Made by a program: the position numbers and the translations under genes. 14,290 bases of DNA from a virus. Its lineage: Duplodnaviria > Heunggongvirae > Uroviricota > Caudoviricetes. Positions 1 through 14,023 of the stretch are shown here, piece after piece. Numbering within the stretch: position 1 is the first letter of the stretch; each line of letters starts with the position of its first letter. The DNA lies in the IMG/VR virus record IMGVR_UViG_2534682108_000014, positions 1-14,290 of that record, one strand, 5' to 3'. The notes under the pieces were generated by a model. That model did not search any database, was not told where the DNA came from, and saw only the letters and a program-made list of their open reading frames with translations.

Positions 1-237
1 TCAGTGTGCCACTACACCACGTACAGCTCTGAACCAGGGGAATGTGATTAATTCCAGGCATTCGACGTTCTCTGTACCGCGATCAACCAAATCGCCAACC
101 GAGATAAGCAGGTCTTTTTTGGTGTCGAATCCAATCGTATCCAGTTTGTTCATCAGGTTCGTGTAGCAACCGTGCAGGTCGCCAACTACCCAAATATTTC
201 GGTATTTGCTGCCATCAATTCTTTCGTAATAGCGCAT
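1..237 (-). CDS. Serine/threonine protein phosphatase (lambda NinI / PPase-like), N-terminal 79 codons only; C-terminus lies beyond the window start
   Basis: Translation from ATG at 237 gives [37 protein letters not shown]...GDLVDRG, i.e. the metallophosphatase GDxHG and GDxVDRG motifs, and closely matches my memory of the lambda phosphatase N-terminus. RBS GGAG 8 nt upstream. The ORF-track start at 312 is an upstream in-frame extension overlapping ninH. Confidence 0.8.
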
Positions 238-421
238 CTCTTTCACTCCATCCGCGATGAACCATAAGAACGTCGTTGACGATGGCGTGCATTTTCCCGT
301 CTTTATCATCAACGTATTTTCTGACCGTACCGCGACTACATTTCAGTCTGCGTGCTACTTCTGTCTGGTTTCCGTATGCTTCAACGAGCATGTCTGGAAT
401 GGTTTTTACTGAGAACGTCAT
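215..421 (-). CDS. ninH: NinH protein (68 aa)
   Basis: 68-aa [40 protein letters not shown]... matches my memory of lambda NinH in size and sequence. Its start overlaps the ninG stop (ATGA), and it sits between ninG and the phosphatase gene. Confidence 0.85.
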
Positions 422-1029
422 GCGACCTCACTTCTGCTATTTCGCAGGTCTTTGAGTTTCTGTTGGTACTCTGCCTTGATCGCCTTGCACTCTTCGACAG
501 TCCAGCGATGGCGGTTATGGTTTGATTCGATTTCGTCTACTGCTTCCTGCCCGATGCGGCTAATAAGTTCGACGCGATACGGAACGAGATTTCCGCTTTT
601 GTGCTGGTTGCACACCACGCATTGCTTGTGAATATTGCGTTCATCAAACCGAAGTTGAGGTGCCGCAGCAGTTGTCCGGTAATGTCCGGCATCCCACTGA
701 GCAGACGTGAGCGTTCCGCACGAGATACATGGTAAGTCGCGGTCTCTTTCTCTGATGAAGGCGTTTACGGCTTGTTGGGCTTGTTTAATCCAGTAACTGC
801 GGGGCTTTAAGGCGAGTTTTCGAATCTTAAGTTTATCTTTCTGTTTCTGCTCCTCTCGTCGTCGTTTCTTCTCTGCTGCCTTTTCCGATTTTTCGCGTTC
901 TTTGCTTCGTCGTTCGAGTGCTATCTTGGTTCCACACTCTGGAGAGCACCACCACTGATTGGCGAATGCAGGGTGAAACCATTCCCGACATTCATCGTTT
1001 TTACATCGTCTTCGCGCTGGTTTAGCCAT
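418..1029 (-). CDS. ninG: NinG / Rap-family recombination-associated protein (203 aa)
   Basis: 203-aa ORF with cysteine clusters (CKNDEC...CSPEC; CISCG...CVVCNQHK) and a basic KR-rich linker, typical of NinG. Position ninF-ninG-ninH matches the lambdoid nin order. Confidence 0.88.
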
Positions 1030-1198
1030 CGTCTTCTTCCTCGTACATTGAGCTATTCGGATCGCTCATAAGTTCTGCGCAACAGTGCTCACACACGTGA
1101 ACTTCCAGCACATGCAGCTTCTGACCGCAGTTAGCGCACGTTAAAGCCCGCTCGACGCTTTCTTTCTGGTATTAAATGGATTGGGATGGGCTAAGCAT
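1022..1198 (-). pseudogene. ninF: ninF-like 58-codon frame interrupted by an in-frame TAA at codon 9
   Basis: ATG at 1198 to TAA at 1022 is exactly 59 codons and translates [57 protein letters not shown]. The in-frame stop is at 1172-1174. This is NinF-like from memory of lambda NinF, which I recall with Q at that position. Confidence 0.55.
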
Positions 1199-1556
1199 TA
1201 TTGGCGTCCTGCATCATGAGAAAGACAATCATGGCAGCGCGGAGTGGGTTTTCATCTTGAGTCATATGATATGGGGTACTATCACTGCCAACTTTTCTAT
1301 GCGCTGCCTTCCATAATCCATTTTCTGGCGCTGGAATAATGCCAATTCTGTTCTCTACGATAATCGGCTCTGCGTCTGATGGGCTTTTACAGTAATCAAC
1401 CGTTTTTATTGCATAACCAGTTTCGTCATCCCACTCAACACCAACGATTGATGTTCCCAACTTTGCGATTTCGCAATCTTCGGGAGCAAATCCACAGCAA
1501 ATTGCCACTCGCTTGTTAATTTCAAAATCACTTAACTGTGAATAATCCATTGTCAT
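1191..1556 (-). CDS. Hypothetical nin-region protein (121 aa from ATG at 1556; occupies the ninX/ninD slot)
   Basis: ORF between ninE and ninF. ATG at 1556 overlaps the ninE stop (ATGA), suggesting translational coupling. The ORF-track start at 1592 would overlap ninE by 40 nt. No family recognised from sequence alone. Confidence 0.6.
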
Positions 1557-1729
1557 TTCCTCGCACGATGTCTTAGCCACCGGATATCCCACAGGTGAGC
1601 CGTGTAGTTGAAGGTTTTTACGTCAGATTCTTTTGGGATTGGCTTGCGTTTATTTCTGGAGCGCTTCGTTGGAAGGTATTTGCAGTTTTCGCAGATGATG
1701 TCGGTGATACTTCGTCGCTGTCGTCTCAT
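1553..1729 (-). CDS. ninE: NinE protein (58 aa)
   Basis: From ATG at 1729: [58 protein letters not shown], matching my memory of lambda NinE. Start overlaps the ninB stop (ATGA). The track start at 1774 is an upstream extension inside ninB. Confidence 0.85.
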
Positions 1730-2136
1730 TCGTACCTCCTGTCGGTAAATCTGACACCCTGACCAATAGCCCATGCTGTCGTGTACTCAATCAGGCTTGC
1801 CATGCGCTTCACGCTCATCTGTGCGCTGCTTTCGCGAATGTTGACGTATTCACCTTCAAGGCCGGGCAAAACATCAGCTTCCTGTTTTGTTGCCACTGCA
1901 TGACCGCTAATTAACAAAACCTTCCATTGTTCCGGTTTTAACCATTTGCCGCACCATTGAACCTGACGAGCGATATCCGCCAGCATCGCGTGAAATTTTG
2001 CGTTCTGGTCAAGGTTGCGCTTGTAGTCAGTAATGCGGATGGTAACTGGCTTGTCTTTATCGAGTGGTGTTGCGAGGATGGCGTTGATTGCGGCTTGCTG
2101 TTGTTGTTTACCACGGAGGAAGATTGTTTGCTTCAT
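1726..2136 (-). CDS. ninB: NinB-family recombination protein (about 136 aa)
   Basis: Contains the NinB-like core ...[33 protein letters not shown]... ATG at 2136 is preceded by GAAGGAG with a 5-nt spacer. The track start at 2142 is a GTG two codons upstream. Confidence 0.75.
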
Positions 2137-2138
2137 CG

Positions 2139-2453
2139 TCACTCCTTCACTTTGACTCCAACGGCGCGGATGTTTTCCTCATAAGCATCCATTCCATCGC
2201 CGAAGCCATTGGAATAATCAACAGTAAACCCTTTGGCTAATGCTTCTCTGCTGTCGATAAACTTTGGCGCGGTTATTTCAATAGCTGATCGCGATGCCTG
2301 CCATAAAGTCCACCACTCATTTAAGGAGTGACGAATATCCATGCTTGAAAATGCGAAGTACCTATCACCATTTCTTGCCTCGGTTATCATCTCGAATGGT
2401 AATCTCAATTTTTTGGCAACGTATTCCTCAAACTGCTTTCTTGATTCGTCCAT
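2139..2453 (-). CDS. Hypothetical protein (104 aa)
   Basis: Intact ORF with ATG at 2453, RBS GAGGG upstream, stop 2 nt before the ninB start. Same strand and tight spacing as neighbours. No motif recognised. Confidence 0.6.
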   Translation of the reverse strand: MDESRKQFEEYVAKKLRLPFEMITEARNGDRYFAFSSMDIRHSLNEWWTLWQASRSAIEITAPKFIDSREALAKGFTVDYSNGFGDGMDAYEENIRAVGVKVKE

Positions 2454-2470
2454 CGATAATTACCCTCAGT

Positions 2471-2677
2471 TCAACTCACAAAACACCACGCCATTTTTGC
2501 TACAGCGACAGGCGCAACACCGATAATCACCCACATGAGAATGCTACCGAAAAGCACACCCGCCAGGTCTTTACCTTCGCCTACCAACCGGACAAAACAG
2601 ACAGCAACCACAATGAACGTCGCCACCATCCACAGAGCACCGAGAAGCCTCAATGCAGAGAAAATTAACTCAACCAC
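2471..2677 (-). CDS. Small hydrophobic protein, two predicted transmembrane helices (68 aa, GTG start)
   Basis: MVELIFSALRLLGALWMVATFIVVAVCFVRLVGEGKDLAGVLFGSILMWVIIGVAPVAVAKMAWCFVS has two about 20-residue hydrophobic stretches split by a GEGKD turn. GTG start preceded by GGGGGAGAG 6 nt upstream. Lies directly downstream of an intrinsic terminator. Confidence 0.55.
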   Translation of the reverse strand: MVELIFSALRLLGALWMVATFIVVAVCFVRLVGEGKDLAGVLFGSILMWVIIGVAPVAVAKMAWCFVS

Positions 2678-2692
2678 GATTTACTCTCCCCC

Positions 2693-2724
2693 AAATAAAA
2701 AGGCCTGCGATTACCAGCAGGCCT
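2693..2724 (-). terminator. Rho-independent terminator on the minus strand between the 89-aa gene and the small membrane-protein gene
   Basis: Minus-strand reading AGGCCTGC-TGGTAATC-GCAGGCCT followed by TTTTTATTT: 8-bp GC-rich stem, 8-nt loop, U-tract. The plus-strand reading lacks a downstream T-run. Confidence 0.6.
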
Positions 2725-2749
2725 GTTATTAACTCAGAGATGTAGATGG

Positions 2750-3019
2750 TCATTGCTTCATCTCCCTTTCCATTTCATCAATGTCAACGTCATCAGGAAG
2801 ATGGGAGCAATACGCCGCTATACCATGATGATTTATCTCATACCCTTTGAACGTTACCATCTGATGCGTAATCTCAACTTCGTTCAGGAATCCGCCATCG
2901 CATAACTGCCTGGCTATTTTCGATTTGGTCTGGATTATTGGTAGTGCCTGTTCTTTCAAAGCGTATGATATTTGTGCATCCCATGCCTTTTCGAGAATGG
3001 CTAATTGTTTTTTATTCAT
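2750..3019 (-). CDS. Hypothetical protein (89 aa)
   Basis: ATG at 3019 with strong RBS AAGGAGG 6 nt upstream. Start overlaps the helicase stop by 1 nt (TGATG). No family recognised. Confidence 0.6.
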   Translation of the reverse strand: MNKKQLAILEKAWDAQISYALKEQALPIIQTKSKIARQLCDGGFLNEVEITHQMVTFKGYEINHHGIAAYCSHLPDDVDIDEMEREMKQ

Positions 3020-4455
3020 CAGAATCCTCCTTTCTTCTTGGACTGCGGTTCCTCGCGTTCACGGCGGCGCATTTCAGCAGACTGTTGGTCTGTGTCATAA
3101 ATAGCGCCATTTGCCTGAATGCAATACACCGTGCCGGTATTGCCATGACGATTGAGGCGAAGGATTAGTTCGGTTTCACCAGGTGGAACACTGTCATCAA
3201 AAGCACCTTCACGATGGATCCCCACCCAATAATCGCAATCCTGTTCAATCTGCCCTGTATCTCGTGAGTCACTTGGTAATGGGCGTTTATTGGTTCGGCT
3301 TTCCAGTGCGCGGTTAAGCTGTGTCAGAAGCACAACAACGCAATCAAGCTCTTTGGCAAGGTTCTTCAGTCCTTTGGTGATCATGCCGTAAGCAAGGTCG
3401 TTGCGATCGGCCTTTTCAGCGGTCATTAGTGTCAGGTAATCGACCAGAATCATGCCAACACATCCTTTTTCTCGCTTGATTCGACGGCTTTCGCTGACGA
3501 TTTGAGCCAGAGATAATCCCGGCGTGTCGTCAATGTAAAGCAGGTCGATTTCACTCAAGCGATTGGCTGTTTCGATCGCCCTGTTGAAGTCACCATCGTA
3601 ATCACCCTGATAGCCGTCATCAGCGTCATTTGTCGCCGGAAGGTAAAAAATATTCGGGTTAACACCTGACTTCTGTCCTACCAGTTTTTCCAGTATCTGG
3701 TCACCGGGCATTTCAAGGCTGAACATCAGAGCGGGCTTTTTCTCATGCACTGCGCAGTTGATTGCCATCTGGCTGTATAGCGTCGTTTTCCCCATCTTAG
3801 GGCGAGCGCCAATGACAAACAGAGAGCCTTTCACCAGACCTTTCGGTGACAGCATCCTGTCCAGCGATGGGATCCCTGTGCTCATTCCTCGTTGTTCGCC
3901 TGACGGGTCAAATCGCTTCTCAAGGTCGCTAACCCAGTCTTCCATGACCTCACCAAATGAGCGAAGGCCGCGACGCGATCCGGTTTTTGCATGGTCTGTC
4001 AGTTGCGTGAAAATCGCCTGAATAGCTTCGTACTTCTGCGTTGCAGTCATTCCGTTGCGGGAATAGAGCAATTCCGTCGCTTCAGTCATGCGGTTGATGG
4101 CGTAGCGTTCCATTGCGGTTTCACGAACCTGCATTGCATAGGCAACGATGTTTGCTGCGCTTGGCGTGTTCTTTGCGATCTCAGCGATATAAGCAAAACC
4201 GCCAACAGACACCGTTAACGATTTACGCTCCAGTTCATCGAAAAGCGTCAGGCCATCTACTGGCTTTTGCTCACGGTGCATTCTGGTTATTTCTTCGAAA
4301 ATGATTTTGTGTGGTCGGCTGTAAAATGAATCAGGCTTCAGCATCGCCAGGACTTTCTGGACGCGCTCACTGCTGTCATCATCCAGAAGCAATCCACCAA
4401 TCACCGCCTGCTCTGCCTCGATGCTATGGGGCGGCGCATAAAAATTATCGGTCAT
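3019..4455 (-). CDS. Replicative DNA helicase, DnaB family (phage P22 gene 12-like), about 478 aa
   Basis: Walker A GARPKMGKTT, Walker B-like ILVDYLTLM, and DnaB-type N-terminal SIEAEQAVIGGLLLD. ATG at 4455 is preceded by GAGGGTG; the track start at 4470 is a GTG extension. Confidence 0.93.
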   Translation of the reverse strand: MTDNFYAPPHSIEAEQAVIGGLLLDDDSSERVQKVLAMLKPDSFYSRPHKIIFEEITRMHREQKPVDGLTLFDELERKSLTVSVGGFAYIAEIAKNTPSAANIVAYAMQVRETAMERYAINRMTEATELLYSRNGMTATQKYEAIQAIFTQLTDHAKTGSRRGLRSFGEVMEDWVSDLEKRFDPSGEQRGMSTGIPSLDRMLSPKGLVKGSLFVIGARPKMGKTTLYSQMAINCAVHEKKPALMFSLEMPGDQILEKLVGQKSGVNPNIFYLPATNDADDGYQGDYDGDFNRAIETANRLSEIDLLYIDDTPGLSLAQIVSESRRIKREKGCVGMILVDYLTLMTAEKADRNDLAYGMITKGLKNLAKELDCVVVLLTQLNRALESRTNKRPLPSDSRDTGQIEQDCDYWVGIHREGAFDDSVPPGETELILRLNRHGNTGTVYCIQANGAIYDTDQQSAEMRRREREEPQSKKKGGF

Positions 4456-5335
4456 CGTGTTCACCCTCACGAACTTTCAGGTAGGTATTATCGTTAAGCA
4501 GGAAATCAAATCCCTTTTTGTGCCAGACGGTTCCGCGTTGATGGTTTGGACGCTCTTCGAACATCCATCGGCAATTTTCGCCTACGTAGCTCAAATAATT
4601 TCTCCAGTCCTGCATCGTGAACCCATGCCCGTCAAGCTGGCGGGTTATCACTCCGGCTTTGCGCCAGAACGTTCGGATCTGGTTTTTACGCTTGTCATTC
4701 AGTGCGCGGATTTTTGGCGCTTCAGGAAGGATTTCGTGGTAAGCATCGACAACATCCTGACAGCTAACGGAAGGTTTTTTCTTGTCAGACTTTTTGTCTG
4801 CTGCGGTACTCTCTAATACGTCAGTATTAGAGATATTATTTATATTATTGTTTATGGACAACCGTTGGACAACCGTTGGACAATCTCCGCTGAGAGCCGC
4901 GCCATTACTGGTGTTTGCGTTGGGCAACCGTTGGACAACCGTTGGACAATTTTTTGCCTGAAAATCGTCATATTTAACGATTGTAAACAGGCTAAATTTC
5001 TTCCCCATCGAGCAAATATTAAGCATACCTTTCGACTCAAAAGTCCGTAATAAGCTCCGAACTTTGTTGTCGGGGATGAATGTTTCTCTGACCAGCGACG
5101 GGCGTCCAGTTATCATCTGACCGCGATCAACAGTTATCGGCCCGATATCCGTATTGACGACAGTAGATTCGTGATTAGCCTTGAGGATTAAGTGAAGCCA
5201 AAGATGTACTGCCTGAGAGTCCTTATAGAGCCTGCTGTCCATAAACTGGCGGTGTATAGAGACATACCCCATACTGGATGCCTCCTGATGTTGTACAGGG
5301 TTATGCCTGTAATCAGCTAACTTAACGACGCCCAT
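4445..5335 (-). CDS. Replication initiation protein, lambda O-like (P22 gene 18-like), 296 aa, containing the origin
   Basis: Sits immediately upstream of the DnaB-type helicase; RBS AGGAGTG before ATG 5335. The coding sequence carries ori-type iterons, translated as the repeated peptide CPTVVQRL. Family assignment is by organisation plus recollection of O/gp18 proteins. Confidence 0.85.
   Translation of the reverse strand: MGVVKLADYRHNPVQHQEASSMGYVSIHRQFMDSRLYKDSQAVHLWLHLILKANHESTVVNTDIGPITVDRGQMITGRPSLVRETFIPDNKVRSLLRTFESKGMLNICSMGKKFSLFTIVKYDDFQAKNCPTVVQRLPNANTSNGAALSGDCPTVVQRLSINNNINNISNTDVLESTAADKKSDKKKPSVSCQDVVDAYHEILPEAPKIRALNDKRKNQIRTFWRKAGVITRQLDGHGFTMQDWRNYLSYVGENCRWMFEERPNHQRGTVWHKKGFDFLLNDNTYLKVREGEHDDR
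4815..4950. repeat. Replication origin: AT-rich tract (4815-4852) plus six approximately 11-bp iterons GGACAACCGTT in two clusters (4855-4887 and 4922-4950) inside the O-like gene
   Basis: Direct reading: ggacaaccgtt ggacaaccgtt ggacaatctcc, a 34-bp spacer, then gggcaaccgtt ggacaaccgtt ggacaattttt. Adjacent attagagatattatttatattattgtttat is AT-rich. Layout (iterons then AT-rich, in the O reading direction) mirrors lambda ori. Confidence 0.8.
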
Positions 5336-5483
5336 GTTTCACTCCTGCTTTGGCTAGTCTGTAAACACCAACAAGGCGCTCTGCGAACGCCCTGTTATTT
5401 GCTGCGGCTACCACTAATCCCTCAGGTGAATCAGGGTGTCGAATCTCTTCTTTTTCCTGGTATTTCTTACGACGTTTTGTCAT
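5322..5483 (-). CDS. Small basic hypothetical protein (53 aa) between the cII-like and O-like genes
   Basis: ATG at 5483 with RBS AGGAG 6 nt upstream; translates MTKRRKKYQEKEEIRHPDSPEGLVVAAANNRAFAERLVGVYRLAKAGVKHGRR. Its stop overlaps the O-like start. Below the ORF-track size cutoff, so a manual call. Confidence 0.4.
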   Translation of the reverse strand: MTKRRKKYQEKEEIRHPDSPEGLVVAAANNRAFAERLVGVYRLAKAGVKHGRR

Positions 5484-5517
5484 AATTACTCCTGTGGATT
5501 GATCCAGTCTTTCTACA

Positions 5518-5796
5518 TCAGGCCTCGAAGAATTCGCCGTTCTTCGGGGCTTTTTCTTTTGTCAGCATTCTGGCTACTTTCTTAGCCAGTTCCGCCAACT
5601 CCTCGTCTTCAACACCCCATTCAAGAACAGCCAGAAGCATGGCCATCTTTGGGATAAAGCTGTCTTTCCATCGCGAAATTTGCGATTCATTAATCCCTAA
5701 CGCGTCGGCAACCTTTCGCTGACCACGTACAGCAATTCGATTCAGGATGTTGCTTGTAATTGCATTCGCTTTCTTGCGAGTACTTGTAAGTTCCAT
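5518..5796 (-). CDS. c1: CII-family transcriptional activator (P22 C1-like), 92 aa
   Basis: From ATG 5796: MELTSTRKK...GINESQISRWKDSFIPKMAMLLAVLEWGVEDEEL, carrying the conserved CII core SQISRWK...IPK...MLLAVLEWGV. RBS AAGGAAA 7 nt upstream. The track start at 5883 is an upstream extension across the cro-cII spacer. Confidence 0.85.
   Translation of the reverse strand: MELTSTRKKANAITSNILNRIAVRGQRKVADALGINESQISRWKDSFIPKMAMLLAVLEWGVEDEELAELAKKVARMLTKEKAPKNGEFFEA
5522..5560 (+). terminator. Rho-independent terminator on the plus strand, antisense to the 3' end of the cII-like gene (candidate terminator of an OOP-like antisense RNA)
   Basis: GCCTCGAAGAA-TTCGCCG-TTCTTCGGGGC followed by TTTTTCTTTT: 11-bp stem with one mismatch, then a U-tract, on the plus strand only. 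Position is analogous to lambda terminator to. Confidence 0.5.
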
Positions 5797-5810
5797 ATGT
5801 AAGTATTTCC
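5774..5810 (+). promoter_or_regulatory. Candidate PRE (CII-activated establishment promoter) pointing toward cro/c2
   Basis: TTGC-gagtac-TTGT on the plus strand at 5774-5787 matches the TTGC-N6-TTGC CII/C1 site with one mismatch. It lies inside the first codons of the cII-like gene in the opposite orientation, as lambda pRE does. The -10 is weak, as expected for an activator-dependent promoter. Confidence 0.4.
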
Positions 5811-5829
5811 TTAACAAATAAGAAGTTAT

Positions 5830-5847
5830 GCGCATCAACTTATGCGC
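5830..5847 (-). other. Hairpin between nutR and the cII-like gene (possible tR1-like pause/termination element)
   Basis: GCGCAT-caactt-ATGCGC is a 6-bp inverted repeat with a 6-nt loop, followed on the minus strand by a U-rich but interrupted tract. Position matches lambda tR1; the structure alone is weak evidence. Confidence 0.3.
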
Positions 5848-5855
5848 GTTGTATT

Positions 5856-5898
5856 CCCGCATTTCGGCGGGAATGAGGACCATGACTGTTAAAGAGCA
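5856..5898 (-). promoter_or_regulatory. nutR: boxA (5887-5898) plus boxB hairpin (5856-5871) just downstream of cro
   Basis: Minus-strand reading TGCTCTTTAACA (boxA, same core as the E. coli rrn boxA), a 15-nt spacer, then CCCGCCGAAATGCGGG (5-bp stem, GAAA-containing loop). The same boxA core and an identical boxB recur downstream of PL. Confidence 0.65.
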
Positions 5899-5904
5899 AT
5901 TTGC

Positions 5905-6090
5905 TTATGCCGCTTTGCGGTAAGCGCTTTCTTGATACTTCAGGGCGCCAGCTGTAACGACTTCCAGTCGATAGGCGTCTTTCTCTGGGATGACTTCCTT
6001 CCACTGAGAGACTGCTGCGTCGCTAATGCCTAACGCTTTAGCTACAGCACGCTGGGTTCCGAAGTGGTCGATAACATCTTTCTTGTACAT
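5905..6090 (-). CDS. cro: Cro repressor, P22-type (61 aa)
   Basis: MYKKDVIDHFGTQRAVAKALGISDAAVSQWKEVIPEKDAYRLEVVTAGALKYQESAYRKAA matches P22 Cro almost residue for residue as I recall it; HTH QRAVAKALGISDAAVSQW. Divergent from the repressor gene across the operator region. Confidence 0.93.
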   Translation of the reverse strand: MYKKDVIDHFGTQRAVAKALGISDAAVSQWKEVIPEKDAYRLEVVTAGALKYQESAYRKAA

Positions 6091-6104
6091 AGACTCGCTC
6101 CGAA

Positions 6105-6170
6105 ATTAAAGAACACTTAAATTATCCACTAAAGGAATCTTAAGTCAAGTTTATTTAAGATGTCTTAACT
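6105..6170. promoter_or_regulatory. OR region: three 18-bp P22-type operators (6105-6122, 6128-6145, 6153-6170) with PR (minus strand, toward cro) and PRM (plus strand, toward c2)
   Basis: All three sites fit ANTNAAG-N4-CTTNANT: ATTAAAGaacaCTTAAAT, ACTAAAGgaatCTTAAGT, ATTTAAGatgtCTTAACT. Minus-strand PR reads -35 TTGACT (6143-6148) and -10 GATAAT (6121-6126) with 16-bp spacing. The third operator abuts the c2 ATG, implying a short or leaderless PRM transcript. Confidence 0.75.
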
Positions 6171-6821
6171 ATGAAAACTCAATTGATGGGAGAGCGCATT
6201 CGCGCTCGGAGAAAAGAACTCAAGATCAGGCAGGCCGCACTTGGAAAGATGGTCGGCGTGTCTAATGTTGCCATATCTCAGTGGGAACGCTCTGAGACAG
6301 AGCCAAATGGAGAGAATCTTCTCGCCCTGGCTAATGCGTTGAAGTGTTCCCCTGACTATCTGATGAAAGGAGAGGAAAGTCTTTCAAACATTGCCTATCA
6401 CAGTAGGCATGATCCAAGAGGGTCATACCCTCTGATTAGCTGGGTGAGCGCAGGATGCTGGATGGAAGCTGTAGAACCATATCATAAGCGTGCAATAGAT
6501 AACTGGTACGATACAACCGTAGACTGTTCAGAAGATTCGTTTTGGTTGGACGTGAAGGGAGACTCAATGACGGCTCCGGCCGGTCTCAGTATCCCTGAAG
6601 GAATGATAATACTCGTCGATCCTGAAGTAGAGCCGCGTAACGGGAAACTGGTAGTTGCAAAGCTCGAAGGAGAAAACGAGGCAACTTTCAAGAAGTTAGT
6701 TATTGATGCAGGCAGGAAGTTTCTAAAACCACTTAACCCACAATATCCGATGATCGAGATCAACGGAAACTGCAAAATCATCGGCGTAGTTGTCGATGCA
6801 AAACTAGCAAACCTTCCATAA
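6171..6821 (+). CDS. c2: Prophage repressor, P22 C2-type (216 aa), LexA-like autocleavable
   Basis: MKTQLMGERIRARRKELKIRQAALGKMVGVSNVAISQWERSETEPNGENLLALANAL... matches P22 C2 near-identically from memory and has the same length. N-terminal HTH, Ala-Gly cleavage region, and C-terminal S24-type GDSM serine with a downstream lysine. Confidence 0.96.
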   Translation: MKTQLMGERIRARRKELKIRQAALGKMVGVSNVAISQWERSETEPNGENLLALANALKCSPDYLMKGEESLSNIAYHSRHDPRGSYPLISWVSAGCWMEAVEPYHKRAIDNWYDTTVDCSEDSFWLDVKGDSMTAPAGLSIPEGMIILVDPEVEPRNGKLVVAKLEGENEATFKKLVIDAGRKFLKPLNPQYPMIEINGNCKIIGVVVDAKLANLP

Positions 6822-6846
6822 GGGGGCATTCGCCCCTTTTTTTTAT
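6822..6846 (+). terminator. Rho-independent terminator downstream of c2
   Basis: GGGGC-ATTC-GCCCC followed by TTTTTTTT, starting 1 nt after the c2 stop codon. Confidence 0.8.
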
Positions 6847-6887
6847 TTCCTTTAAAAATCAAAGCCAAACTTAAGTTACGAAAGAAA

Positions 6888-6940
6888 ATTTAAGTTTTCT
6901 TCAAAAATACTCTTGACCATTAATTAAAGAGATCTTAAAT
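6888..6940. promoter_or_regulatory. OL/PL region: P22-type operator at 6923-6940, weaker site at 6888-6905, and PL promoter (plus strand)
   Basis: ATTAAAGagatCTTAAAT (6923-6940) is a perfect fit to the operator pattern; ATTTAAGttttCTTCAAA (6888-6905) has one mismatch. PL reads -35 TTGACC (6913-6918) and -10 TTAAAT (6935-6940) with 16-bp spacing, the -10 lying inside the operator. Confidence 0.65.
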
Positions 6941-6986
6941 TTAAGCCATCAGCAGGACGCTGGTAGCCAAACGGAACAGATTGGCA

Positions 6987-7027
6987 GGCTCTTTAACATT
7001 GATGGGATTGTCCCGCCGAAATGCGGG
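6987..7027 (+). promoter_or_regulatory. nutL: boxA (6987-6998) plus boxB hairpin (7012-7027) in the PL leader
   Basis: GGCTCTTTAACA, a 13-nt spacer, then CCCGCCGAAATGCGGG. The boxB is identical to the nutR one on the other strand, and the boxA core GCTCTTTAACA is shared. Confidence 0.62.
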
Positions 7028-7339
7028 AACCAAAGAGTAGTTGGCTTTGGGGTGACGTGAAGTGCAGCTGCACGACGGCAACCGGAAGATAAGCACCCGG
7101 CGCGTCACCGCCAAAGTCAATTCCATAGGCGAAATGCAGCCGCCAAACACAGCCAATGCTGCACATGCAACAGGAGGATTTATGTGAATGCATAACTTCA
7201 AAACCGAGGTTAATTAAATCTCTCGATCCGAGCATTGACCTATTAGGTGGCGAGATGCTCTTTCTGCCCCTCAGTTCGAGGGGCCAGAAACCACTTTGCA
7301 ATCACTATCAATTCCAAAGTTGTTTCATCGGAGGTCAAC

Positions 7340-7612
7340 ATGACAGTAGTCATTACATATCTGGCTGACGATAACGCCAGAAATCGCCGCAGAGCACGCA
7401 GACAGGCTCAACGTGAACAGGCAATGCAAGAGCAGCGACTGACGCGAAAAATTGCGCTAAAGCTCTCTGGTTGCGTCAGAGCAGATAAAGCAGCATCACT
7501 CGGAAGCCTTCGCTGTAAGGAAGAAGATGAACGCAGTGGAAGTATTTGCCTGCCAAACGTAGCCATTTACGCGGCAGGATACCGGAAATCAAAACAACTG
7601 ACGGCGAGGTAA
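7340..7612 (+). CDS. 24: N-like transcription antiterminator (P22 gene 24-like), 90 aa
   Basis: From ATG 7340 (RBS GGAGG): MTVVITYLADDNARNRRRARRQAQREQ... with an N-terminal arginine-rich motif, and a C-terminus LPNVAIYAAGYRKSKQLTAR resembling P22 gp24 as I recall it. Lies downstream of PL/nutL. The track start at 7247 is an upstream extension. Confidence 0.85.
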   Translation: MTVVITYLADDNARNRRRARRQAQREQAMQEQRLTRKIALKLSGCVRADKAASLGSLRCKEEDERSGSICLPNVAIYAAGYRKSKQLTAR

Positions 7613-7615
7613 GTG

Positions 7616-7840
7616 ATGAATCAGACATACATTCCATCATGCTTGAGAAATCTGCCAAAGCAGAAAGCAAAGCCCCGCAAGCAAGCCATAAAGGACGCTA
7701 AGGCAGAGGTTATTGATCAAGCAATACAATTGCTCAGGGAGGAGTTAAGAAGTGGCAAGCTCGAAGGAATGATGATGCCATATCAGCGCGGATATCTATC
7801 GGCGATTAGTAAGTTGGAAGTATTGAAGAGTGAATTATGA
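7616..7840 (+). CDS. Hypothetical protein (74 aa), lysine-rich N-terminus
   Basis: ATG at 7616 begins 4 nt after the N stop, with GAGG 7 nt upstream. Same strand as the PL operon. No family recognised. Confidence 0.55.
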   Translation: MNQTYIPSCLRNLPKQKAKPRKQAIKDAKAEVIDQAIQLLREELRSGKLEGMMMPYQRGYLSAISKLEVLKSEL

Positions 7841-7902
7841 ACTATCTGGAATTTCCGGATGGTTCATTGTTTTGGCAGCAAACCACTTATTTGAGGTGAT
7901 AT

Positions 7903-8154
7903 ATGGAATTTCATGAAAGTGCGATTTGTGATTTTCGCGCTAACGCAAATTCAGTAAAACAACAGCCAATTGCAGTTCTTTTTAAAACAATGGGTGCGTG
8001 GGCTGTTTTATGCTTCGCCGCTGACGACACTGACGCAAGAATGGCAATAGGCCAAGAGATGGAGATGGATCCGACAAACGATGAATTCATAATTTATGGC
8101 GCTCCATCTAATTACTTACTTGATACCTGCAACATTTACAACAAGGCTGCCTGA
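7903..8154 (+). CDS. Hypothetical protein (83 aa)
   Basis: ATG at 7903 preceded by GAGGTGATAT. Acidic, cysteine-containing, no recognisable motif. Confidence 0.55.
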   Translation: MEFHESAICDFRANANSVKQQPIAVLFKTMGAWAVLCFAADDTDARMAIGQEMEMDPTNDEFIIYGAPSNYLLDTCNIYNKAA

Positions 8155-8213
8155 TGGTGGTCTTTATTTTTTAGCCGTAAATAATTTCATGCTTATTACA
8201 ATCAAGGTGATAT

Positions 8214-8579
8214 ATGGAAGAACAAGCAAACAAGATTCTCGTAGAACTACTGCAAAAAGCCAGCAATGGAATAGACGCGGCTGTTTCATTTAGCCAGGCA
8301 CAGATTCCTGATGTCATCCATCAGCTTTTGATGTGGCACGCCGTATCATCAGCTGGAATTCAGGCTATCTGTGTATTGGTGATTATAGCGTGTGTTTATC
8401 TGATGATTTTTGCATGGAATAAAGGAGATGATGCAGATATTGTTCTTTCATCACTACTTGTCACATCAGGAATAGCGATTACTTCTATTGTTGTTTTCTT
8501 CAATTATTTCGACTGGCTGAAAATTTGGCTTGCTCCAAAACTTTACCTTATCGAATATGCAGCATCATTGGTTAAGTAA
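8214..8579 (+). CDS. Hypothetical membrane protein (121 aa) with two predicted transmembrane helices
   Basis: ATG at 8214 preceded by AAGGTGATAT. Hydrophobic segments AGIQAICVLVIIACVYLMIFAW and LLVTSGIAITSIVVFFNYF follow an amphipathic N-terminal region. Confidence 0.6.
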   Translation: MEEQANKILVELLQKASNGIDAAVSFSQAQIPDVIHQLLMWHAVSSAGIQAICVLVIIACVYLMIFAWNKGDDADIVLSSLLVTSGIAITSIVVFFNYFDWLKIWLAPKLYLIEYAASLVK

Positions 8580-8638
8580 TTTCAGGACGCATAGTCGGCC
8601 TTTATTTTTGGCACAAACAACAGAATAAACACTGCACT

Positions 8639-8666
8639 GTGTATTCATTCCAACGAGTGAATACAC
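8639..8666 (+). other. Long hairpin / inverted repeat (12-bp arms, 4-nt loop) in the intergenic region upstream of the c3-like gene
   Basis: GTGTATTCATTC-caac-GAGTGAATACAC gives 12 pairs counting one G-U in RNA (one mismatch as DNA). No U-tract follows, so it is not an intrinsic terminator. Confidence 0.5.
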
Positions 8667-8728
8667 GGAGCAATGTCGCTCGTAACTAAACAGGAGCCGA
8701 CTTGTTCTGATTATTGGAAATCTTCTTT

Positions 8729-8754
8729 GCCCTCCAGTGTGAGGGCCTTTTTAT
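8729..8754 (+). terminator. Rho-independent terminator within the PL operon, upstream of the c3-like gene
   Basis: GCCCTC-cagtgt-GAGGGC followed by CTTTTTTAT on the plus strand. Confidence 0.6.
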
Positions 8755-8818
8755 ATGCATACCAATAACGCTTCACTCGAGGCGTTTTCGTTATGCAATC
8801 AAATATAAGGAGTTACCC

Positions 8819-8953
8819 ATGATGCACTTTCAGTTCGCGGGTAGCGGCGTCATGTCCGCTTTCTACCCGCACGAATCTGAATTATCACGCCGAGTTAAAC
8901 AATTAATAAGAGCAGCAAAGAAACAACTGGAGGCGTTATGCGCAATGAAATAG
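8819..8953 (+). CDS. c3: CIII-like small protein (44 aa), putative FtsH-inhibitor that would stabilise CII
   Basis: From ATG 8819 (RBS AAGGAG, 5-nt spacer): MMHFQFAGSGVMSAFYPHESELSRRVKQLIRAAKKQLEALCAMK. This shares the lambda CIII pattern AG..V...P.ES.L.R...L.....K.L as I recall it. The track ORF starting at 8714 spans the terminator and is rejected. Confidence 0.5.
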   Translation: MMHFQFAGSGVMSAFYPHESELSRRVKQLIRAAKKQLEALCAMK

Positions 8954-9090
8954 CCATCAATCACCAGATGCTTCGTGCGGCACAAAACAAAGCAGTAATA
9001 GCCAGATTTATTGGTGATTCCAAAATGTGGCTTGAAGCAAATAAAGCGATGAAATCAGCTATCAACCTTCCGTGGTATCGCAGGAAATGA
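8938..9090 (+). CDS. Small hypothetical protein (50 aa), in the kil/arf position of P22-like phages
   Basis: ATG 8938 with GGAGG 4 nt upstream, overlapping the c3-like 3' end. Translates MRNEIAINHQMLRAAQNKAVIARFIGDSKMWLEANKAMKSAINLPWYRRK. Below the ORF-track cutoff; positional inference only. Confidence 0.4.
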   Translation: MRNEIAINHQMLRAAQNKAVIARFIGDSKMWLEANKAMKSAINLPWYRRK

Positions 9091-9245
9091 GTTTTACAGA
9101 TAACTGGTCAGACGAAGAATTCATTCGTCAGATGAAAGAATTAATCGGTAACGAAGGAGATATTCATGTCACTTGCAACCACAGTGAAGGAGAGCAAGTT
9201 ACAGAGACGCATGTACACGCAGAAAGCTCTCTGGTATCGCCATAA
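9087..9245 (+). CDS. Small acidic hypothetical protein (52 aa)
   Basis: ATG 9087 overlaps the preceding stop (ATGA), suggesting coupling; the RBS is poor. Translates MSFTDNWSDEEFIRQMKELIGNEGDIHVTCNHSEGEQVTETHVHAESSLVSP. Confidence 0.35.
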   Translation: MSFTDNWSDEEFIRQMKELIGNEGDIHVTCNHSEGEQVTETHVHAESSLVSP

Positions 9246-9346
9246 TGGCGACCGCGAAGGAATGCGGGTATGCCTTAATTTGTCCCGAGTCGAAGTATTA
9301 AATCAGCGTTATTTCCTTGGGCCTTGTCCATTCTGAGAACAAACAT

Positions 9347-9952
9347 ATGAGCAAAGAATTTTACGCAAGACTGGCTGCTATTCAGGAGAATCTGAACGCG
9401 CCAAAAAATCAGTACAACTCATTCGGCAAATATAAATACAGAAGCTGCGAAGATATTCTTGAAGGCGTTAAGCCGTTACTGAATGGTCTGTTTTTATCAA
9501 TCAGCGATGAAGTTGTGTTGATTGGTGATCGGTATTACGTGAAAGCCACGGCAACTATTACCGATGGCGAAAACAGTCATACGGCAACCGCTCTTGCACG
9601 AGAGGAAGAAAGCAAGAAAGGAATGGATTCTGCACAAGTTACGGGAGCCACAAGCTCTTATGCACGCAAGTATTGCCTCAATGGTTTGTTCGGCATTGAT
9701 GATGCGAAAGATGCAGATACCGACGAGCATAAACATCAGCAGAACGCAGCAGCAAAGCAATCAAAACCATCACCTACACCTGAACAGGTTCTAAAAGCAT
9801 TCACTGACGCAGCATTGCAGAAAAACACCGTGGAAGAGCTTAAACAGGCGTTCGCCAAAGCGTGGAAGATGCTCGAAGGCACACCGGAGCAGCACAAAGC
9901 GCAGGACGTTTACAACATCAGACGAGACGAATTAGAAGGAGCTGCTGCTTAA
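9347..9952 (+). CDS. erf: Erf, essential recombination function protein (single-strand annealing protein), 201 aa
   Basis: From ATG 9347: MSKEFYARLAAIQENLNAPKNQYNSFGKYKYRSCEDILEGVKPLLNGLFLSISDEVVLIGDRYYVKATATITDGENSH... matches P22 Erf closely from memory. The track start at 9317 is a TTG extension. Confidence 0.9.
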   Translation: MSKEFYARLAAIQENLNAPKNQYNSFGKYKYRSCEDILEGVKPLLNGLFLSISDEVVLIGDRYYVKATATITDGENSHTATALAREEESKKGMDSAQVTGATSSYARKYCLNGLFGIDDAKDADTDEHKHQQNAAAKQSKPSPTPEQVLKAFTDAALQKNTVEELKQAFAKAWKMLEGTPEQHKAQDVYNIRRDELEGAAA

Positions 9953-10335
9953 TGGCACATTCGATTACTGTAAGACTAAACAAGCCCGCAAGAGAGTTTC
10001 AGGCCGGGGAAAATATCGGATTCAACATCCGTGCTGGCGTTCAGTATTACGATCGCCAGACAAAAAAGAAAGAATGGACAAACTACAGCGCCGTTGTATT
10101 TGCCAAGCCTGGAGCGCAAGCTGATTACTACCGTAGTGTTCTTGTTGAAGGTGGCATTGTAGAAATTACCGGAGAAAACATCAGGGTTGATGTTTATCAG
10201 GGGCAAAATGGTCAATCAATCACTCTTGAATTACTGAATGCAAAGATTGGATTTGCAACTTCAGGAAACAGCCAACAGCAGCAAAGTAGCAATCATCAAA
10301 ATCATCCTGAATACGACGATTCAATTCCCTTCTAA
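9952..10335 (+). CDS. Single-stranded DNA-binding protein-like (short SSB with acidic C-terminal tail), 127 aa
   Basis: ATG 9952 overlaps the erf stop (TAATG). The C-terminus ...QQQQSSNHQNHPEYDDSIPF resembles the SSB signature tail DDDIPF after a Q-rich linker, and the N-terminal region has an SSB-like pattern (W.NYSAVVFAK ... VEGG.VEITG). The track start at 9862 lies inside erf. Confidence 0.6.
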   Translation: MAHSITVRLNKPAREFQAGENIGFNIRAGVQYYDRQTKKKEWTNYSAVVFAKPGAQADYYRSVLVEGGIVEITGENIRVDVYQGQNGQSITLELLNAKIGFATSGNSQQQQSSNHQNHPEYDDSIPF

Positions 10336-10358
10336 AGTAGCAACATAAGGATTCCATT

Positions 10359-10652
10359 ATGCCAGCGCCTCTGTATGGTGCGGATGACCCGCGCCGCTGT
10401 TCCGGCAATTCCGTATCGGAGGTGCTGGATAAATTCAGAAAAAACTACGACCGGATAATGTCTCTACCGCAGGAAACGAAAGAGGAAAAGGAATTTCGCC
10501 ACTGTATATGGCTTGCAGAGAAAGAAGAACGCGAGCGAATTTACCAGACATCAATCCGCCCATTCCGCAAAGCCACATATACCCACTTCCCTGAAATTGA
10601 CCCGCGCCTGCGTAATTACCGCTCACGCTATGGCGCTATCAGTAATGACTGA
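10359..10652 (+). CDS. Hypothetical protein (97 aa); by position could be an anti-RecBCD abc-type gene, but not recognised
   Basis: ATG 10359 with AAGGA 7 nt upstream. No motif recognised; the functional guess is positional only (downstream of erf). Confidence 0.55.
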
Positions 10653-10662
10653 GGAATTTACC

Positions 10663-10827
10663 ATGAGAGGACTTGCATACAATCCCGGCATTCTTCCGGC
10701 AGAAATGATTATTCGACAACGCGTAAAGCCAATGCCATCGAGAGAGGAATTGCTTAAGAGAAAGAGTTTCGGTTCTGTTAATGACAACAAATATCTGAAT
10801 GCGATGTGGCGGAGTGGGAAGAAATGA
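10663..10827 (+). CDS. Small hypothetical protein (54 aa)
   Basis: ATG 10663 with GAGGAA 7 nt upstream: [54 protein letters not shown]. The track ORF starting at 10513 is a long upstream extension overlapping the previous gene in another frame. Confidence 0.45.
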
Positions 10828-11216
10828 AACAAATGACACTAATTGAGATGGATGGATTTCTGAAAGGTAAATGCATTCCACGAGATTTAAAGGTTAACGA
10901 AACAAACGCTGAATATCTGGTGCGTAAATTTGCTGAAGCGGAGGCCAAGTGCGCGGCGCTGGCTGCGGAGAATGCGGCGCTGAAGAAGTTCTGCAAAGAC
11001 GCTGCATTCGATGCCGATTACGAAGCAGAGCTAGGTATGGAGCGTGGTGGATTCAGTGATGCACTTAACGATATCGAAACCACAGCCACCGACGCTTTCT
11101 TGGCTGAAGTACGGGCGCAGGGCGTGGAGATGTTTGCTGACCATCTGTTGTGCCCAAACCTTGATGACACTATCCGTGACTTTGCTGCCCAGCTTCGCAA
11201 AGGAGTGCAGTCATGA
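10824..11216 (+). CDS. Hypothetical protein (130 aa), alanine-rich helical segment
   Basis: ATG 10824 overlaps the upstream stop (ATGA). Contains [20 protein letters not shown], suggestive of a helical or coiled-coil segment. Confidence 0.55.
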
Positions 11217-11575
11217 AAAGAGAGCCGAAAAAAACTGTGAAGATTAAGCGTTTCCGCTACTCACTTGATTGGTTCACCGTTGATGACGTTGAGTGCGAAG
11301 TCGGCAATGGATTCAGCTACGAAATGCAGTTTCGTCTCGGGGCATGGTATCTGATGGGGAAATATTACGATTACAAGGCTGAGCAGTGGTACGAGGATTA
11401 TAGAAAATCATTCCAGCTGGAATGCCCAGCGGAAGCCGTTATTGCTCTTGGTAATAGCCTGACGAAGTTCAGCAGACTTCACGACTGTGACCACCTGACT
11501 GAACACCTCGCTAAACTGCTGAAAGGCGTTGCTTCGCGCATTGCTATTAGTGAAGCAGAAGGAGGCAACCAGTGA
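11213..11575 (+). CDS. Hypothetical protein (120 aa)
   Basis: ATG 11213 overlaps the upstream stop (ATGA), with AAAGGAG 7 nt upstream. No motif recognised. Confidence 0.6.
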   Translation: MKREPKKTVKIKRFRYSLDWFTVDDVECEVGNGFSYEMQFRLGAWYLMGKYYDYKAEQWYEDYRKSFQLECPAEAVIALGNSLTKFSRLHDCDHLTEHLAKLLKGVASRIAISEAEGGNQ

Positions 11576-12180
11576 GCAAGATTGATTATCAAAAGCTTCG
11601 TGAAATCGCTGAAAAAACAAAAATTGCTGGTGAAGCACCTGTAATGCCTTTCGATCAGCGAATTAATGCGCTTAACGATTTTATGAAGCACTTTTCGCCA
11701 GATATCGCGCTGGCATTGTTGGATGAACGGGAAAGAAACCAGCAATACATCAAATCCCGCGACCAGGAGAACGAGGATATTGCGCTAACGGTAGGGAAGC
11801 TGCGCGTTGAGCTGGAAGGCAAAGACAGCAAAATAGCCAATCTTACCGCCGAACGCGATGCTCTTCGTGAAGGTGAGATGGGCGACGCTAGGCATAGCAA
11901 CACACGGGCCGCAGCTGATATCTACTTCCAACTGGTCGAGGAGTGCGAAATTCCTGCTGGCGGTTCTCTGGTCGAGTACGTTGACGATATGCGCGAGAAG
12001 CTGGAAGCCGCAGAGAAGCGCATTGCAGAACTGGAAGCGCGGGAAATACTGCTCCCGGAACGTAGCAGCATGCTTCATCGAACAGATTTTCACGATGATT
12101 ACCAAACGGTAATGGCATACAAAGTTTCTGAGGTCATCGATGCAATCCGCGCCGCTGGCATTCGCATCAAAGGAGAGTGA
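11572..12180 (+). CDS. Hypothetical coiled-coil protein (202 aa), ea-region type
   Basis: GTG 11572 overlaps the upstream stop (GTGA), preceded by strong GAAGGAGG. Central heptad-like region KLRVELEGKDSKIANLTAERDALREGE ... LEAAEKRIAELEARE. Confidence 0.6.
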   Translation: MSKIDYQKLREIAEKTKIAGEAPVMPFDQRINALNDFMKHFSPDIALALLDERERNQQYIKSRDQENEDIALTVGKLRVELEGKDSKIANLTAERDALREGEMGDARHSNTRAAADIYFQLVEECEIPAGGSLVEYVDDMREKLEAAEKRIAELEAREILLPERSSMLHRTDFHDDYQTVMAYKVSEVIDAIRAAGIRIKGE

Positions 12181-12181
12181 G

Positions 12182-12373
12182 ATGAATGGACAAATATCAA
12201 TTGTTCGACCTGGAGCATGTGACGATTGCGAGATACGAATGATTATTCGTCTGGCAATGGGGAAAACAATAACTGCTCTCATTACTCCAGAAAATCTCGC
12301 ATTGGCATTAACCGGAAAGTCAGACCTGCCAGTAGAGCTAAAGCTGCGAAATGTTGAGATTAAGGTGAAATAG
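12182..12373 (+). CDS. Small hypothetical protein (63 aa)
   Basis: ATG 12182 sits 1 nt after the upstream stop, with AAGGAGAG upstream: MNGQISIVRPGACDDCEIRMIIRLAMGK... The track start at 12140 lies inside the previous gene. Confidence 0.5.
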   Translation: MNGQISIVRPGACDDCEIRMIIRLAMGKTITALITPENLALALTGKSDLPVELKLRNVEIKVK

Positions 12374-12374
12374 C

Positions 12375-12971
12375 ATGAATTCTATTACCAAAGAACGTAT
12401 TGAATTGTTCATTAAAGATCCGCTTGAAAACGGGCTTACTCGTGGCGAACAAATGGAACTGGCACGAATTGCACTGGCATCACTGGAACGCGAACAGATT
12501 CGCCACGAGCATGCCAAATGGTCTGACTCCACATTTGGCTGCGTTGGCCCCATTGGTCCGCTGAAACATCTCTCAAAAGAGGCTCTGGAAGCCGCAGCCG
12601 AACCAGACGATCTTAGCGAGTGGGCTGATATGCAGTTTCTGTTGTGGGATGCACAGCGCCGTGCTGGCATCAGCGATGCTGAAATTACCGCTGCTATGGA
12701 AGATAAATTGAAGATCAACATGGAGCGCCAGTGGCCTGAGCCAAAAGATGGTGAGCCTCGCTTGCACATTAAAGAACCCGGCAACTATCCGGCAACTCCG
12801 GATGGTTGGGTTATGGTGCCGAAGGAGTTAACCCCGGAAATGATGAGAGCCGTTCAGATTAGAAGTGAGCTTGGAGGGTATGCCACTTCCAATCTATCTG
12901 GTGCATACAATATGTTTTCTGAGTTCTGGAATGTTGCTGTCTCAGCTGCGCCTAAGGTGGATGATTTATGA
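12375..12971 (+). CDS. Hypothetical protein (198 aa)
   Basis: ATG 12375 sits 1 nt after the upstream stop, with AAGGTGA 6 nt upstream. No motif recognised. Confidence 0.6.
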   Translation: MNSITKERIELFIKDPLENGLTRGEQMELARIALASLEREQIRHEHAKWSDSTFGCVGPIGPLKHLSKEALEAAAEPDDLSEWADMQFLLWDAQRRAGISDAEITAAMEDKLKINMERQWPEPKDGEPRLHIKEPGNYPATPDGWVMVPKELTPEMMRAVQIRSELGGYATSNLSGAYNMFSEFWNVAVSAAPKVDDL

Positions 12972-13547: not shown

Positions 13548-13551
13548 CAAT

Positions 13552-13578
13552 CCTCGCACTCGCGGGGATTTCTTTTAT
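13552..13578 (+). terminator. Possible weak intrinsic terminator after the ASCH-like gene
   Basis: CCTCGC-actc-GCGGGG (6-bp stem including one G-U) followed by the U-rich ATTTCTTTTAT. Confidence 0.3.
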
Positions 13579-13619
13579 CTGAACTCGCTACGGCGGGTTT
13601 TGTTTTATGGAGACAAGAA

Positions 13620-13964: not shown

Positions 13965-14023
13965 CCACAGCCTCACACTCGATGAGGCCAGTTCATTTCT
14001 CAAGATATCCAGACCTACCATCG

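Follow-up and report, generated by a model that had tools for sequence, protein, structure and literature searches.

An optional two-helix membrane protein gene behind the tR2 terminator in the nin region of lambdoid phages, and its natural fusions to NinA

The stretch of DNA analysed here (the window) comprises positions 1 to 14,290 of the IMG/VR virus record IMGVR_UViG_2534682108_000014, which belongs to a virus of the class Caudoviricetes, and contains, behind an intrinsic terminator in its early operon, a small open reading frame (ORF) named ORF68. ORF68 is a genuine but optional gene of the nin region, situated between the terminator tR2 and the next nin gene, and encodes a 68-residue membrane protein predicted to fold as a helical hairpin. 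We lean towards the reading in which this protein is an N-dependent, delayed-early accessory protein of the inner membrane, which works with the NinA peptide encoded directly upstream and is dispensable. The terminator, ninA, ORF68, orf89, orf104 and the nin genes all lie on the minus strand, and the features on which the argument turns are the following.

2471-2677, minus strand: ORF68, GTG-initiated, 68 amino acids (aa), two transmembrane helices, PHROG 1165 (unnamed), from the ORF listing and a profile match
2684-2692, minus strand: Shine-Dalgarno sequence GGGGGAGAG of ORF68, followed by a 6-nt spacer and the GTG at 2677
2693-2724, minus strand: tR2 intrinsic terminator, an 8-bp hairpin with six G-C pairs (2724-2701) and a U-tract (2700-2693), from a terminator scan and identity with lambda
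2670-2753, minus strand: ninA micro-ORF, 27 codons, one hydrophobic helix, containing tR2, from translation and sequence

An earlier account of the window, made from the letters alone (the sequence-only reading), had described a hairpin terminator, a strong ribosome-binding site and a hydrophobic ORF of 68 aa, and all three are present at the positions it gave, on the minus strand. Its location of the gene between the replication and nin genes also holds, as ORF68 stands between the gene of a DnaB-type helicase and that of NinB in the PR operon. ORF68 matches PHROG 1165, a family of unknown function, over positions 1-68 of 68 (E 2.6e-34). It has no match in Pfam, NCBIfam or PADLOC, and the PHROGs search gave two families only, both of unknown function, which bears out the earlier view that the role of the protein is not readable from its sequence. 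A search of 5.8 billion proteins returned homologues that group into 192 clusters (90% identity). They come from E. coli, Shigella, E. albertii and Salmonella, and the length is exactly 68 aa in 117 of the 120 clusters listed (the best 120 of the 192). Their database names are restricted to 'hypothetical', 'membrane' or 'phage protein'. An exhaustive search of 1.84 billion representatives gave only 13 clusters, which points to a narrow family without a characterised distant relative, and a scan of genome contigs found five loci, all of them on Escherichia or E. coli-phage-like contigs binned into metagenome-assembled genomes.

The frame has the properties of a coding sequence. It comprises 68 codons at every locus read, with a constant start position and a GTG start codon (ATG in SPN9CC), and of the six frames it is the only one that stays open in all alleles. 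More distant homologues of 63-66 aa share 30-35% identity, and the residues W16, V32, G44, W49, G53, K61 and W64 are invariant down to this level, while the changes among ORF68 alleles are conservative hydrophobic exchanges. A 124-aa ORF on the opposite strand (2294-2668, plus strand) and the other frames across ORF68 were rejected, as they acquire stops in divergent alleles; the antisense product is hydrophilic and of low complexity, as expected opposite hydrophobic codons. The Shine-Dalgarno sequence GGGGGAGAG is nearly invariant in 40 aligned loci, and ORF68 uses the same G-rich tract that precedes ninB in lambda.

ORF68 is present in 107 phage records (tblastn), which fall into three allele groups. 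The first, at 81-93% identity, contains Kapi1, HK022, mEp235, Stx2-phage 86, 48 Stx2a phages, HK630 and others; the second, at about 50% identity, contains HK620, H-19B, mEp213 and HK633; and the third, at about 42% identity, is made up of P22-like phages of Salmonella, such as SPN9CC and Emek. PHROG 1165 includes members from mEp235, Stx2-phage 86 (gp69), Kapi1 and SPN9CC (SPN9CC_0027) as 'hypothetical protein', with alleles that are 81-97% identical. The comparison of related phages proposed in the sequence-only reading shows that ORF68 is optional behind one and the same terminator, since only about a quarter of the tR2-bearing phage records carry it (107 vs 391). The segment formed by tR2 and ORF68 is covered at ≥80% in at least 500 of 5426 complete E. 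coli genomes (at least about 9%). Several reference records leave the homologue unannotated (HK022, NC_002166 33098-33298; HK620, AF335538 12384-12581; H-19B, AF034975 8094-8291), and in mEp235 (NC_019708 30889-31047) it is annotated from an internal methionine, with 52 aa rather than 68. The window allele itself carries a rare cysteine at residue 65 (4 of 117 homologues, with arginine in 112 of the 117) and a rare V26, and its C-terminal tail is thus one basic residue short of the consensus.

The description of the product as a small two-helix membrane protein is supported by both hydropathy and modelling. The grand average of hydropathy (GRAVY) is 1.72, and the 19-residue Kyte-Doolittle profile has two peaks, 2.65 (residues 11-29) and 2.44 (residues 41-59), separated by the loop RLVGEGKD. 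An AlphaFold2 model built with 14 homologues is a helical hairpin (residues 2-33 and 38-67) with a mean predicted local distance difference test (pLDDT) score of 87. The C-terminal tail KMAW(C/R)FVS has eight residues, one (window allele) or two (consensus) of them basic. Conservation is higher in helix 2 than in helix 1 (mean identity 0.69-0.72 vs 0.56), and helix 2 together with the tail contains the motif F-G-x4-W-V-x-x-G-x-x-P-V-x-V-A-K-x-A-W. Conservation has a weak helical periodicity (95-105 degrees), and in combination with the conserved helix 2 and tail it hints at a specific helix-helix interface over generic membrane disruption. No PDB sequence was matched at E ≤ 10 in a profile search, and Foldseek comparison of the model with BFVD and the PDB gave no match at E ≤ 0.001, only generic helical hairpins. 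A cleavable signal peptide or lipobox in helix 1 was rejected upon inspection of the sequences, because divergent alleles do not keep the candidate site V-V-A|S and because the fusions to NinA described below have helix 1 inside the polypeptide.

For ORF68 against alleles of 42-50% identity, the ratio of nonsynonymous to synonymous substitution rates (dN/dS) is 0.28-0.40; among close alleles the corresponding ratio of polymorphisms (pN/pS) is 0.71, and the variable sites are spread evenly over the three codon positions (17/13/16). The pN/pS value indicates that ORF68 is either loosely constrained or diversifying; it is 0.41-0.47 in the neighbouring small ORFs. In comparison with Stx2-phage 86, 15 of about 20 differences within 630 nt are located in ORF68, which appears as a local hot spot of divergence amid nearly invariant flanks.

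The terminator is lambda tR2. The hairpin reads AGGCCTGC-TGGTAATC-GCAGGCCT at 2724-2701 and is followed by the U-tract TTTTATTT at 2700-2693; the arms and tract (AGGCCTGC-N8-GCAGGCCT plus U-tract, 2724-2693) are identical, base for base, to tR2 in the lambda genome (NC_001416). In the terminator scan this hairpin ranks second among the terminator-like sites of the window, which number 30 as against 14.3 ± 4.0 in shuffled sequences, and the local RNA fold has a z score of -3.3. The HK620 record annotates 'terminator tR2' at the equivalent place, and that of Sf6 has 'terminator, homology to phage lambda; tR2' together with 'bsq6; boundary sequence'. The position after the replication genes and ahead of ninB in the PR operon also matches the lambda arrangement. 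The published termination data concern lambda only, where tR2 reaches a maximal efficiency of about 0.9 in vivo; it is located 30 bp past the NinA AUG and 16 bp before the NinA stop, and its efficiency drops by no more than about 10% when NinA is translated (Li et al. 2015, PMC4824070). In the window, read-through of tR2 presumably requires the N-like protein encoded at 7247-7612. The terminator half of the finding is thus already textbook knowledge (lambda tR2/ninA).

The 84-nt segment formed by ninA and tR2 is present in 391 phage records and nearly invariant across the 40 aligned loci, and immediately 5' of the ninA ATG the loci diverge into at least six unrelated sequence classes. This marks the segment as an element of the phage backbone, a highly conserved mosaic junction common to hundreds of lambda-, P22-, HK620- and Stx-type phages, rather than the edge of an inserted cassette. 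The 'terminator-bounded' label of the sequence-only reading therefore has to be given up, because the terminator is lambda tR2 itself, present with or without ORF68 and, in lambda, directly ahead of ninB.

The ninA micro-ORF (MTIYISELITGLLVIAGLFIWGRVNRG in the window) fell below the cut-off of the ORF listing and was missed in the first reading. Its ATG overlaps the stop codon of orf89 (ATGA), which is one of at least six different genes seen upstream of ninA/tR2. At its other end ninA shares 8 nt with ORF68, across the GTG of the latter and its own TGA (cGTGgtTGA). The common V2A polymorphism of ORF68 (GTT to GCT) leaves the ninA TGA intact. ORF68 itself is not NinA, the latter being the 27-aa ORF upstream according to the annotation of HK620 ('similar to P22 NinA') and SPN9CC; Sf6 also has an annotated ninA (gene 45, 'similar to phage 21 NinA'). 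In lambda, the translation start of NinA has been shown to be active (PMC4824070). The lambda sequence ...ATGACCATCTACATTACTGAGCTAATAACAGGCCTGCTGGTAATCGCAGGCCTTTTTATTTGGGGGAGAGGGAAGTCATGAAA (ninB) has the same hydrophobic ORF of 26-27 codons spanning the hairpin, an identical hairpin, U-tract and G-rich Shine-Dalgarno sequence, the same place after the replication genes at the start of the nin region, and ATGA-type overlaps joining the genes; however, it runs directly into ninB, whereas in the window and about a quarter of tR2 phages the Shine-Dalgarno sequence and stop overlap lead to ORF68. The last residues of NinA also differ (RVNRG vs RGKS).

In HK022, a gene of 203 aa of the homing-endonuclease type (HNH_3 + AP2; L019 2257-3005) is located within ninA just upstream of the tR2 hairpin, so that an N-terminal ninA fragment is joined to other sequence while the hairpin and ORF68 are intact. 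In Sf6, gene 46 (L052 1877-2203) directly follows ninA/tR2 and has a GTG start and an N-terminal transmembrane helix; in two further loci (L035 and L036, of which only the 5' end of the gene was read) the ORF after ORF68 has the GTG and the identical first 14 residues of Sf6 gene 46. The slot after tR2 tends toward membrane proteins.

Salmonella prophages carry in-frame fusions of NinA with ORF68, single proteins of 93-94 aa with three helices (P0206, P0210 and P0212). Two different indels in the G tract that contains the Shine-Dalgarno sequence produce the fusions, and the hairpin and U-tract are kept in both.

SPN9CC (unfused): TTTATTTGGGGGAGAGGGAAGCATGG, no change
L051 (fused): TTTATTTGGGGAGAGGTAAGCATGG, -1 nt
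L048 (fused): TTTATTTGTGGTGGAGAGGGAAGCATGG, +2 nt
Fusion coordinates in Salmonella prophages: 2501-2785 in L048-L050 and 2501-2782 in L051

In the collection, 55 blocks are indexed for the P0212 fusion, which was read in samples independent of one another, and the fusions occur with two different replication modules. These natural fusions argue that NinA is translated. They further argue that the N-terminus of ORF68 shares one side of the membrane, probably the cytoplasmic one, with the basic C-terminus of NinA (GRVNRG), in which case ORF68 would have an N-in/C-in arrangement. The topology would be N-out/C-in for NinA and N-in/C-in for ORF68, with a periplasmic loop of eight residues, and the fusions are in keeping with this. 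Translation of ORF68 appears to be coupled to that of NinA.

The sequence-only reading had also proposed that the gene is an independently acquired accessory unit. The accessory part stands, as ORF68 is optional and mosaic; the part concerning an acquired cassette does not. No promoter-like site was found on the minus strand within 2677-2760, the nearest (2994-2965, 9/12) being upstream of tR2. No terminator follows ORF68 either: the next ATG lies 17 nt past its stop, and the one remaining candidate, a 6-bp hairpin within ORF68 (2507-2489), is weak. The GC content of 200-nt windows over ORF68 (0.455-0.50) is not atypical in comparison with the flanks (0.405-0.50), and the strong strand skews at ORF68 reflect its hydrophobic codons. 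Lambdoid morons, which have a promoter-gene-terminator structure, resemble ORF68 in being variably present extra genes between conserved ones, but the absence of its own promoter and terminator, its neighbour-like GC and its interlinked starts and stops indicate that ORF68 is not a moron. It is an optional member of the nin chain, whose genes are translationally interlinked.

Taken as an accessory protein of the early lytic phase, ORF68 would be transcribed only from PR, once N-modified RNA polymerase has passed tR2, as judged from lambda biology; the protein would hence be made in lytic growth or upon induction and not in the lysogen. Its expected dispensability follows from lambda, Sf6 and about three quarters of the tR2-bearing phages, which do without it. 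As to mechanism, we offer a tentative and speculative proposal, in which ORF68, with or beside NinA, contacts a partner in the inner membrane and modulates an envelope function during lytic development. The contact may be made through the conserved face of helix 2 and the juxtamembrane P-V-x-V-A-K-x-A-W with a host or phage partner, and the function modulated could be, for instance, DNA entry/exclusion, a membrane-acting host defence or a protease; the action would not be through unspecific pores. A bolder and rather doubtful extension takes NinA (one helix) and ORF68 (two helices) as a previously unrecognised early-lytic module of the inner membrane with a new membrane function, made only after N read-through of the terminator inside ninA, in which the fusions would reflect a physical complex. 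Such a module might block secondary DNA injection in lytic growth, or neutralise a membrane-acting abortive-infection system.

Several points weigh against the accessory-protein reading. Its function has no homology support, all database names being generic, and a literature search on nin-region membrane proteins, ninA, tR2 ribosome profiling and accessions or locus tags returned nothing on ORF68. The pN/pS of 0.71 among close alleles stands beside 0.01 for the helicase C-terminus (3019-3471) and 0.10 for NinB (1726-2142), and such weak selection fits a loosely constrained or near-neutral passenger. The signal of the conserved face is weak (p 0.02-0.07), the topology rests on the positive-inside rule with a small charge bias plus the fusions, and silence of ORF68 in lysogens is something we infer. 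Distant homologues in L041 and L042 have neither NinA nor a terminator upstream, and in HK022 ninA is split by the HNH gene, which together imply that the link to NinA is not obligatory.

The suggestions of a toxin, a holin or an exclusion factor in the sequence-only reading found no positive support in Pfam, NCBIfam, PADLOC, PHROGs, the PDB, Foldseek or BFVD. We judge it unlikely that ORF68 damages the membrane, whether as a toxin that depolarises it or as a pore former of the holin kind, with the NinA::ORF68 fusion adopting the N-out/C-in three-helix topology of class I holins. The protein is small and very hydrophobic, and with about 68 aa, two transmembrane helices and a probable N-in/C-in topology it resembles class II holins and pinholins such as S21-68 of phage 21; the weak GTG start and a terminator of about 90% efficiency ahead of it would also hold the dose low, and the fused form has three helices. 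However, ORF68 is located outside the lysis cassette and late operon, with replication and nin genes rather than an endolysin gene as its neighbours, and its eight-residue tail with one or two basic residues forms no charged hydrophilic domain. It has no sequence or profile similarity to holins (Pfam, PHROGs), the strongly conserved and specific motifs of helix 2 are unlike generic pore formers, and an early depolarising agent would be expected to hurt the phage's own replication. Type I toxins (Hok, TisB, Ldr) have a single helix, their own promoter and an antisense RNA antitoxin, whereas ORF68 has two helices, no promoter found and no match in Rfam, no family of which was matched anywhere in the window. 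Quite unlikely, too, is a moron-type gene for lysogenic conversion or superinfection exclusion, expressed from the prophage and blocking incoming phage DNA as HK97 gp15, P22 SieA and T4 Imm do. Known superinfection-exclusion proteins are located in the inner membrane, and ORF68 shares with these three the character of a small, optional, integral inner-membrane protein of a phage; it is mosaic, occurs in many prophages of E. coli, Shigella, E. albertii and Salmonella, and has the raised pN/pS in close alleles that arms-race genes would show. Against this, ORF68 is promoterless and tightly overlaps ninA in the lytic PR operon, repression shuts that operon down in lysogens, and the sole signal upstream, tR2, would block read-in. 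It also lacks a terminator of its own, has the GC of its neighbours, shows no similarity to annotated exclusion or defence profiles (PHROGs, PADLOC) and has no known exclusion phenotype.

A role in the lysis-lysogeny decision or another early step, through binding of an inner-membrane host enzyme such as FtsH/HflKC, which degrades CII, would make ORF68 a membrane-embedded analogue of CIII; we regard this as improbable. Small membrane proteins can regulate larger membrane complexes, ORF68 shares the PR operon with cII and would be expressed in the delayed-early phase, and an integral-membrane hairpin with a conserved, interaction-like face would suit such a part. The proposal is nevertheless drawn purely from timing and location and finds no support in homology, and ORF68 is absent from lambda and most tR2 phages. 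Finally, ORF68 could encode no functional protein and be open only because the DNA or RNA downstream of tR2 is conserved as a spacer, in line with the pN/pS, the even spread of variable sites over codon positions and the lack of annotation in the classic HK022, HK620 and H-19B records. This is very improbable, as the 68-codon length and the start are held to 42% identity and homologues of 63-66 aa persist at 30-35%, the frame is the sole one open in all alleles, exchanges are conservative around invariant Trp, Gly and Lys, the long-range dN/dS is 0.28-0.40, two independent in-frame fusions to NinA exist, and Rfam has no match.

The window as a whole is a mosaic lambdoid early region, about 50% of which is covered at 97-98% identity by IME10, HK106, HK633 and Sf6. 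Pfam matches and context identify Cro, CII, an O-like protein, the DnaB helicase, orf89, ninA/tR2, ORF68, orf104, NinB, NinE, NinX, NinG and NinH on the minus strand. Transcription into ORF68 presumably starts at the PR-like promoter upstream of cro.

6171-6821, plus strand: S24/HTH repressor (CI), from Pfam
7247-7612, plus strand: N-like antitermination protein, from Pfam N_peptide (E 2.6e-15)
6121-6148, minus strand: PR-like promoter TTGACT-16-GATAAT, upstream of cro and between CI and Cro, 10/12, the best promoter match in the window
3019-4470, minus strand: DnaB-type replicative helicase in the position of the P gene, from Pfam DnaB and DnaB_C
2750-3019, minus strand: orf89, soluble, PHROG 2239 (unknown function), from the ORF listing and PHROGs
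2139-2453, minus strand: orf104, a soluble Sf6 gp48-like protein, PHROG 343, the usual downstream neighbour of ORF68
1726-2142, minus strand: NinB/Orf recombination mediator, from Pfam NinB (E 2.3e-55)

The gene downstream of ORF68 varies: 26 of 40 loci have one of the MDESRKQFEE (orf104) type, and the others continue straight into ninB or a different gene; an orf104-type gene also adjoins the 30%-identical ORF68 homologue in L042. A functional tie between the two was considered and dropped, as the neighbour is recurrent, yet Sf6 has an orf104-type gene (gp48) without ORF68. The family, represented by the window gene (2139-2453, minus strand), L042 4189-4452, L048 3006-3284 and L052 (Sf6) 2412-2720, conserves the N-terminus MDESRKQFEE, a W-Q/S-A-S-R...IEI motif and the C-terminus IRAAGIKVKE around a mosaic middle. 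Relatives of orf104 bear the precomputed Pfam tag Phage_phiTE_015, a family that was not reproduced with a local copy of Pfam. At 9317-9952, 11572-12180 and 12375-12971 on the plus strand, the leftward operon encodes proteins of three kinds: Erf-type annealing, Ead/Ea22-like and dATP/dGTP pyrophosphohydrolase-family.

ORF68 belongs to a phage family that is catalogued but uncharacterised, and thus represents a real gap in knowledge. Two points are worth keeping: the annotation gap in reference phage genomes, and the NinA::ORF68 fusions, which yield a concrete hypothesis and offer a way into NinA, a peptide that is just as unexplained. The protein is a conserved membrane protein of the model phages HK022, HK620, H-19B and mEp235 and of many Stx-converting phages, and because it should be made on prophage induction, it could affect envelope physiology, superinfection or phage yield in enterohaemorrhagic E. 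coli (EHEC).

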